A DNA stretch of 42,237 bases from a virus (IMGVR_UViG_2880361019_000002:1-42237), one strand, 5' to 3'. Shown: positions 19,838-20,463, numbered from the stretch's first letter. Numbers and translations are program-made. Notes: generated by a model not told the origin, from the sequence alone.

Positions 19838-20005
19838 TCAAGCATTATGCAGGCTGTTTCTTTTTATCACCGGCCACAGCAATACCACAATGCCGCAGAC
19901 CAGCACCCCATCCGCCAGCACCGACATGATTCTGCTGGTGAAATCCACCATCACCACCAGAAACAGCAGGAGTGCAGCCACAGCCAGGCGCAGTTTTACC
20001 GTCAC
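19838..20005 (-). CDS. Small predicted membrane protein (about 55 aa), translationally coupled to upstream gene
   Basis: GTG start overlapping the TGA of the 20002-20463 ORF (GTGA), GGAGAA RBS; two hydrophobic segments (LRLAVAALLLFLVV, VLADGVLVCGIVVLLWPVI); not in ORF track (short). Confidence 0.35.
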   Translation of the reverse strand: MTVKLRLAVAALLLFLVVMVDFTSRIMSVLADGVLVCGIVVLLWPVIKRNSLHNA

Positions 20006-20463
20006 AGGTGATTCTCCAGACGAAGACCCAGAACACCGGCAATCTCTTCCAGCACCTTACACTCTTCCGGCTCAATTTCGCCTTCGGCCTCCGCAATGGC
20101 CACCGCCACATCCAGCACATCTTCCGCTTCACGCGTATCGTGTTTCACATCCTCGATCTCACGTAACGCCGCACGACGACCAATTTTAAAGTTCGTATCC
20201 AGCTGACCGATAATGGTTGCGCTCATCGCATTAATTTCTGACGTAAACGCGGACAGCGCTGGCTGATTACGCAGTACCTGTTCGATCTTCGCTTTCTCGG
20301 AAGCCTCACATTCACCATCTGCACAGGCCACCAGGTATGCGGCGTTAATCACCGCCTGTGCCAGATCGCGTTTTTCAAACTTTTTAATTTCCGTTGCCGC
20401 TCTGCGGGCTTTTTTTACCAAAAATACCAAACATCGTGACGTTCCTTTGGGTGGGTGAGCCAA
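20002..20463 (-). CDS. TerB-like (tellurite-resistance TerB domain) protein, possibly frameshifted at its 5-prime end
   Basis: A/E-rich helical protein with AADGE-type motif; a well-formed N-terminus MFGIFGKK sits in another frame across a 7-nt A run (plus-strand T7 at about 20410-20420). Confidence 0.45.
   Translation of the reverse strand: MAHPPKGTSRCLVFLVKKARRAATEIKKFEKRDLAQAVINAAYLVACADGECEASEKAKIEQVLRNQPALSAFTSEINAMSATIIGQLDTNFKIGRRAALREIEDVKHDTREAEDVLDVAVAIAEAEGEIEPEECKVLEEIAGVLGLRLENHL

Follow-up and report, generated by a model that had tools for sequence, protein, structure and literature searches.

A common inherited frameshift allele of tciA in the tciA-tciB cassette of a defective lambdoid prophage

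We find that a TerB-like gene and the small open reading frame (ORF) that follows it in a viral DNA sequence of 42,237 nucleotides (IMGVR_UViG_2880361019_000002:1-42237; this whole stretch is referred to as the window) are tciA and tciB, an already known phage accessory gene pair, and that the disrupted frame at the start of tciA is a common inherited frameshift allele. The pair is probably a moron cassette in the late operon of a defective lambdoid prophage, in which tciA carries an inherited run of seven A residues in place of six (the A7 and A6 alleles, respectively) and is hypomorphic or decaying. Overall, the locus is most likely a case of ordinary gene decay.

RESULTS

Gene order around the cassette

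The genes of the region follow one another in the order Q, tRNA, tciA, tciB, STnc100 small RNA (sRNA), sialate O-acetylesterase, and lysis genes (Table 1). Given the position of the antiterminator gene Q and the synteny with phage JLK-2012, tciAB belongs to the Q-dependent late transcript. Stx phage maps show stx in this same slot, downstream of Q and the tRNA genes.

Several further features of this region were observed. The usual tRNA-Ile/tRNA-Arg/tRNA-Arg array after Q is reduced: at 20601-20678 (minus strand), a deletion of ~90 nt has merged the two tRNA-Arg genes, with 5' sequence from one and 3' sequence from the other. Neither ARAGORN nor Rfam made a call for this tRNA-Arg chimera, and the same deletion is shared by E. 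coli E110019. The STnc100 sRNA begins 5 nt past the tciB stop, and there is a strong intrinsic-terminator-like hairpin directly upstream of the sialate esterase gene. That gene (17662-19515, minus strand) encodes a nanS-p-like esterase of 617 aa with DUF1737, SASA, and DUF6645 domains. It is intact in the window, and its counterpart is flagged as frameshifted in an O157:H7 copy with an amber tciA. According to a 2026 preprint, STnc100 is related to the PasD sRNAs, and TerB genes occur near PasA/PasC.

Table 1. Positions of the cassette, its neighbors, and the disrupting elements of the prophage, counted from the first nucleotide of the window.
Feature	Position	Strand	Remarks
Antiterminator Q	21068..21556	-	Pfam Phage_antitermQ, 8e-25
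tRNA-Ile2 (anticodon CAT), upstream of tciA	20679..20754	-	PGAP: tRNA-Ile at locus L001
Upstream TTG, start of the mechanical 153-codon ORF	20461..20463	-	
Shine-Dalgarno AAAGGAA	20442..20448	-	AGGA 8 nt before ATG, 12 nt before RefSeq TTG
tciA (TerB family), extent from ancestral ATG	20002..20434	-	Frame broken at A7 run
16-codon leader ORF opened by ancestral ATG	20384..20434	-	MFGIFGKKSPQSGNGN, then stop
RefSeq/PGAP version of tciA coding sequence	20002..20430	-	TTG start, 142 aa, MVFLVKKARR...
A7 homopolymer (T7 on plus strand)	20410..20416	-	One base fewer in in-frame A6 alleles
GAG codon, intact in the window	20296..20298	-	Amber TAG in most sampled A7 alleles
GAA codon (D117E)	20083..20085	-	Second A-D-G motif of TerB domain
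tciB Shine-Dalgarno GGAG	20017-20014	-	8 nt 5' of GTG
tciB (DUF3927), 55 aa, two-helix membrane protein	19838..20005	-	Pfam, PHROG, RefSeq, hydropathy
STnc100-family sRNA, directly 3' of tciB	19647..19833	-	Rfam RF02076, 115 bits (gathering score 47)
Intrinsic-terminator-like hairpin and T run	19604..19622	-	Just 3' of STnc100 match
IS and gene J features of the defective prophage	4672-6974, 1406-2944, 22821-23324	+	
IS and gene J features of the defective prophage	2860-4491, 7032-7916	-	

A seventh A separates the conserved start from the TerB body

A Shine-Dalgarno sequence, AAAGGAA, that is invariant in the relatives examined precedes an ATG on the minus strand, from which the gene reads ATG (20434-20432) TTT GGT ATT TTT GGT AAA AAA AGC... 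This frame encodes MFGIFGKKSPQSGNGN, 16 codons with a stop at codon 17 that ends at 20384. Past codon 8, the frame is displaced by the A7 run, which leaves the TerB body in the +1 frame. When one A is removed, MFGIFGKKARRAATEIKK... is joined to the TerB body, and this fusion is the exact sequence of natural A6 alleles (P0001, P0002, and phage JLK-2012). Further alleles, with an interrupted AAAAAGAAA run, are likewise in frame. In-frame (A6) relatives encode a TciA of 143 aa; the window copy has no uninterrupted ORF from the conserved N-terminal Met of the family.

The original prediction, made from the window alone, held that an MFGIFGKK N-terminus lies in a different frame from the TerB-like body across a 7-nt A run and that six A would fuse the two. 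The sequence and the natural A6 alleles agree with it on both points. It further had the annotated ORF starting at an upstream Met in the body frame, which stands only in part. The ORF-track start is indeed in the body frame, but the 153-codon ORF (20002-20463) opens at TTG rather than ATG and is a mechanical extension. No Shine-Dalgarno sequence was seen upstream of the TTG at 20463, which reads CTG or AGG in relatives (L028, L147, and L148); being unconserved and without a Shine-Dalgarno sequence, it was rejected as the true start. PGAP and RefSeq use another TTG for the A7 allele (WP_001299793.1 in E110019), which lies 4 nt after the ATG and overlaps it; no other in-frame start is close to this ATG.

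We retrieved 145 TciA relatives from a database of 5.8 billion proteins. In 29 of the 29 diverse full-length homologues aligned, the TerB body is preceded in frame by the motif M-[FL]-G-x-[FL]-x-K-K. Full-length relatives of this kind occur in E. coli, Salmonella, Klebsiella, Serratia, Pantoea, Enterobacter, and Erwinia/Salmonella jumbo phages; N4-like phage proteins (50% identical) begin with the same motif, and phage P1 TciA, which is outside the 29-homologue alignment, begins MLGILKKK. All three isolated phages with the whole cassette have tciA in frame, among them JLK-2012, an A6 phage with the same Q/ninI/ninG context. A TTG start of the MVFLVKK type is used by no in-frame homologue examined. 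The homologues thus conserve the MFGIFGKK (ATG) frame and not the upstream start. This conservation of the in-frame N-terminus identifies the ATG as the ancestral start and A7 as a derived insertion of one base.

TciA belongs to the TerB family

The description of the gene as TerB-like is supported by three kinds of match: the tciA body matches Pfam TerB (PF05099) with 48.6 bits against a cut-off of 24.4; TciA matches PHROG 632 (“tellurite resistance”) over positions 1-143 at 5e-68; and there is a direct sequence match to Klebsiella TerB (PDB 2JXU, 4e-7) over residues 14-137. An AlphaFold model of the 97%-identical protein P0001 is an all-helical bundle (pLDDT 89, pTM 0.83), in which the first ~20 residues prolong helix 1 at lower confidence (mean pLDDT 62 for residues 1-10, 73 for residues 11-20, and 88 or more beyond). 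The best fold matches in PDB are also TerB-like (2H5N and 2OU3; TM about 0.55, probability 0.9-1.0); their E-values are weak, and they add little to the direct 2JXU match. TciA is predicted to be a cytoplasmic TerB-fold protein with a basic N-terminal helix.

The same Pfam domain occurs in the terZABCDE operon, which confers resistance to tellurite, phages, and colicins and to which Klebsiella TerB (2JXU) belongs. Unlike in that operon, terZ, terA, terC, terD, and terE were not found near tciA in the window, and the partner of the TerB-like gene is a DUF3927 mini-protein and not TerC. We found no evidence of tellurite resistance from the tciAB cassette. A PADLOC scan of TciA and TciB gave no match, and there are thus no grounds for classing the pair as a known defense system. 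By homology to TerB, the role of TciA and TciB would be a membrane-associated stress or exclusion function.

tciB is a conserved small membrane protein gene

The tciA stop codon, TGA (20004-20002), overlaps the GTG start of tciB (20005-20003) in a GTGA junction of 4 nt. The product matches Pfam DUF3927 (PF13064; 62.3 bits against a cut-off of 25, 4e-17) and PHROG 1470 (“TciB-like,” 4e-30). Its hydropathy profile peaks in two stretches, residues ~5-21 and ~27-47, where 15-residue Kyte-Doolittle means reach 2.8 and 2.7, respectively; a D-F-T-S-R turn separates the two. Both coordinates and hydropathy agree with the earlier reading of a TGA/GTG overlap that opens a 55-codon, two-helix hydrophobic ORF. 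That reading also called the ORF unannotated. It is missing from the ORF track, which has a 60-aa default, but public databases hold it as DUF3927/TciB, and RefSeq annotates both genes with the same 4-nt overlap in E110019 (small protein WP_000216636.1).

All close relatives examined share the GTGA overlap as well as the GGAG upstream of it. In the sample, 47 of 47 frameshifted alleles and nearly all in-frame ones have an intact tciB; disruption is confined to some of the copies in which the 5' end of tciA has been replaced and an amber codon is present. A small partner gene is also coupled to the TerB gene in more distant phages. In P1, tciB overlaps tciA by 1 nt. A jumbo-phage contig (L144) has a two-helix ORF of 59 aa that lies 3 nt past the TerB stop and matches DUF3927 below threshold; a Pantoea prophage (L139) has an uncalled two-helix ORF of 49 aa, likewise below the Pfam threshold, that overlaps the TerB stop by 8 nt; and an N4-like phage has a 72-aa ORF with one hydrophobic segment and an ATGA overlap with the TerB gene. 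A Pfam search of the Pantoea and N4-like partner ORFs gave no match; by their position and hydrophobicity, the Pantoea, N4-like, and jumbo-phage partner ORFs are putative TciB homologues. A tblastn search placed TciB next to TerB in several further phages.

The small ORF is thus conserved and gene-coupled in P1, N4-like phages, and jumbo phages. The N-terminus and the small ORF are both beyond chance, the first by its MFG..KK conservation in 29 of 29 homologues and the second by its Pfam DUF3927 match. The 55-codon GTG ORF is a real gene, of the DUF3927/P1 TciB-like family.

The A7 run is a genuine and stably inherited allele

Among complete E. coli genomes, 549 records contain the exact A7 91-mer and 3 contain the isogenic A6 90-mer; one of these 3 comes from a derivative of strain 86-24. 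Among 52 IMG/VR contigs that carry the leader, 46 have A7, 5 have A6, and 1 (L049) has AAAGAAA; no A5 or A8 run occurs among these 52 loci. Because related STEC genomes dominate the samples and recombination occurs among lambdoid prophages, neither these counts nor those of the tciA allele classes given below represent independent events. E110019, the best-matching genome, shares both the A7 run and the protein haplotype, with 99.5% identity over a 1.1-kb region (window 19700-20800).

Some sequencing platforms are prone to errors in homopolymer runs, and the seventh A could in principle be an error of sequencing or assembly in a gene that is really in frame. The recurrence of the same 91-mer in hundreds of independently assembled complete genomes and in the 46 IMG/VR contigs, as well as in E110019 with its shared haplotype, makes this very unlikely. 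The population counts rule out a private sequencing error, which we rejected on this basis, and they also argue against a fast-switching, phase-variable tract. A7 is a genuine, stably inherited allele that is common in EHEC/EPEC prophages.

Possible relaxation of constraint on tciA in A7 alleles

With a conserved 28-mer as an anchor, we recovered 120 full-length tciA copies from an IMG/VR sample. In-frame alleles account for 47 of these, with an intact body in 44, an amber codon (GAG to TAG) in 2, and no stop codon in one more. A further 47 are A7 frameshift alleles, in which the body is intact in 18 and interrupted by the amber codon in 29. Amber alleles are therefore found in 29/47 frameshifted copies versus 2/47 in-frame copies. 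Of the complete-genome records, 520 contain the 74-mer with the amber codon, and 40 contain its isogenic GAG counterpart, the form present in the window. PGAP flags the amber tciA as a pseudogene with an “internal stop.”

The remaining 26 copies (L056, L057, L059, and about 23 others) form a third allele class, in which the 5' end of tciA, including the Shine-Dalgarno sequence and the ATG, has been replaced. Here, unrelated sequence (...GTTAACCGGAAAAAGGA) is joined at the KFEKRD codons. None of these copies has an intact body, the amber codon is present in all 26, and many have a disrupted tciB as well.

In pairwise comparisons, pN/pS rises from 0.03 for in-frame alleles to 0.14 for A7 alleles with an intact body and 0.86 for A7 alleles with the amber codon. 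Variants private to the A7-intact alleles comprise 5 non-synonymous and 1 synonymous change, a ratio that is consistent with neutrality and rejects the family-level constraint (p = 3e-5), although it does not differ significantly from the 7:10 ratio of recent private variants among in-frame alleles (Fisher p = 0.15). The contrast between A7 and in-frame alleles points to relaxed constraint. The window copy has three A7-private changes: I to M, R to C, and D117E. Asp117 is invariant in 29 of 29 homologues and is Glu in the window (A-E-A-E-G-E); the first acidic motif, C-A-D-G-E, is present in the window TciA.

With A7-private changes that are mostly non-synonymous, the D117E replacement, and a common amber codon, the A7 allele looks, on sequence grounds, hypomorphic or decaying rather than programmed. 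Against decay, 18 of the 47 sampled A7 alleles, including that of the window, keep a fully open TerB body, and the pN/pS of A7-intact alleles is still below 1. Part of the diversity among A7-intact alleles may have been imported by recombination.

DISCUSSION

A likely course of decay

In E. coli, TTG is a weak start codon for initiation, and a well-spaced ATG should capture most ribosomes. The expansion from A6 to A7 at codons 7-9 severs the well-positioned ancestral ATG from the TerB body. Most ribosomes would take the ATG, and those that do so would yield the 16-aa peptide only. The TerB body would be reached only via the TTG 4 nt downstream or by rare slippage, giving a small fraction of the ancestral level. 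We infer that tciA is a strong hypomorph that is drifting toward a pseudogene, while tciB, with a Shine-Dalgarno sequence of its own, would stay intact and is probably still made from the Q-dependent late transcript.

Alternative explanations for the A7 allele

The A7 allele might instead be functional as RefSeq has it, with TTG initiating a 142-aa TerB protein that has a near-equivalent N-terminus, MVFLVKK, and is made at a sufficient level. PGAP annotates the allele in this way, and the open bodies and the pN/pS of A7-intact alleles given above fit with it. The +1 frame also happens to give a similar hydrophobic-then-KK N-terminus (MVFLVKK versus MFGIFGKK), and in L049, where the run reads AAAGAAA, the G is synonymous only in the TTG frame. 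This likeness and the L049 substitution suggest that a product initiated at the TTG may be made and be of consequence; the low-confidence first ~20 residues of the AlphaFold model would be compatible with a location outside the TerB core. However, the TTG is a weak start that stands 12 nt from AGGA and is overlapped by a well-spaced ATG, it serves as the start of no in-frame homologue, and most A7 alleles have gained an amber codon, with private changes that are mostly non-synonymous and extend to an invariant Asp. We thus regard a fully functional TTG allele as unlikely, although it deserves more weight than the other alternatives. A selected change of dosage is a more doubtful proposition: A7 would tune tciA down while tciB is kept, with TerB made at a low and possibly condition-dependent level via the TTG or +1 slippage, and the 16-aa leader would serve EHEC/EPEC prophages as an upstream ORF by which the TciA:TciB ratio is set. 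We consider this improbable.

Still less probable, and rejected here, is that A7 is a programmed site, whether for +1 ribosomal frameshifting, for transcriptional slippage (which would give MFGIFGKK-ARR...), or for phase variation between A6 and A7. The heptamer A AAA AAA is slippery for tRNA-Lys, and a +1 slip or the deletion of one A from the mRNA would restore the ancestral protein. The site resembles the A AAA AAG sites for -1 frameshifting in dnaX and IS elements, and the A9-A11 runs at which slippage occurs, in having an A run of lysine codons at the junction of two frames. Yet +1 and not -1 is needed in the window, no stimulatory element is visible, AGC as the codon that follows is neither a rare one nor a stop, and no Shine-Dalgarno-like element is found in the sequence just upstream; moreover, a run of 7 nt is short for efficient slippage by RNA polymerase. 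The two-frame arrangement is itself absent from tciA homologues, which are in frame with an A6 or an interrupted AAAAAGAAA run, and it thus resembles a mutation and not a conserved device. The L049 allele breaks the run yet keeps the shifted frame, and amber codons pile up downstream. Rare isogenic A6 copies do exist, as would be expected with switching (the three records, including that of strain 86-24, and contig L046), but against the 549 A7 records, and with neither A5 nor A8, these leave A7 near fixation. An inherited frameshift that has made tciA hypomorphic or set it on a path of decay therefore remains our preferred explanation.

Relationship to known tciAB cassettes

The names tciA and tciB are already in use for phages JLK-2012 and P1. 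The closer of the two cassettes is that of JLK-2012 (JQ347801, from O55:H7 DEC5E), where the order is the same as in the window: roi, ninG, ninI, Q (489 nt), tRNAs, tciA, tciB, esterase (yjhS/nanS-p-like), and holin. Its TciA is 96% identical to that of the window, and the two share the Shine-Dalgarno sequence, the ATG TTT GGT ATT TTT GGT leader, and the GTGA overlap. They differ in the A run, which has six A in JLK-2012, so that the ATG leads straight into the 143-aa TciA, and seven in the window. At the three positions with E, C, and M in the window, JLK-2012 retains D117, R, and I, respectively, and its tRNA set is Asn/Thr/Gly, whereas that of the window is Ile plus an Arg remnant.

Phage P1 carries tciA-tciB-tciC, with a TerB-like TciA that has the same N-terminal motif, followed by an overlapping DUF3927 TciB of 54 aa. 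Identity to the window proteins is about 42% over 75% of the length for TciA and 58% over 56% for TciB. Unlike P1, which is a plasmid-prophage, the window has its cassette in a lambdoid late operon, and it has no counterpart of the third P1 gene, the 35-aa tciC: no ORF follows tciB in any frame, and the space is occupied by the STnc100 sRNA. In both phages, tciAB adjoins a tRNA-Ile2 (CAT) gene, located downstream of tciC in P1 (AF234172, 1134-1209) and upstream of tciA in the window.

The function of the P1 tci genes has been assigned only “by homology” (PMC9603915). Our literature search on DUF3927, tciA/tciB, and prophage TerB returned only such by-homology annotation and a mention of synteny in the Pas-sRNA preprint, and no experimental paper.

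The locus is of value for annotation. Of the 549 complete E. coli records with A7, those with an open body appear in RefSeq with a TTG start and a 142-aa “TerB family protein” as the product. Most likely, this annotation rescues a frameshifted gene that truly starts at the ATG, 4 nt farther upstream. The 55-aa DUF3927/TciB protein is the better-preserved half of the cassette. The understanding of frameshifting or of TerB proteins is unchanged by this locus.

State of the prophage and other regions

Insertion sequences mark the prophage as defective, a condition in keeping with decay of the tciA allele. The tail-tip gene J is in two fragments, separated by an IS21 element (istA and istB), an IS66 transposase gene adjoins IS21 and the gene J fragments, and an IS1 transposase gene lies in the nin region.

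Two other regions of the window were characterized. An ORF of 590 aa (24681-26453, plus strand) lies on the opposite strand within the early-right region. It matches PHROG 9230, a family of unknown function, from end to end and has no Pfam or PADLOC match; it may be an uncharacterized accessory gene. Last, a lambda cIII thermoregulator element (Rfam RF01804, 88 bits) is located at 35905-35963 on the plus strand, which confirms that the lambdoid early-left operon lies on that strand.
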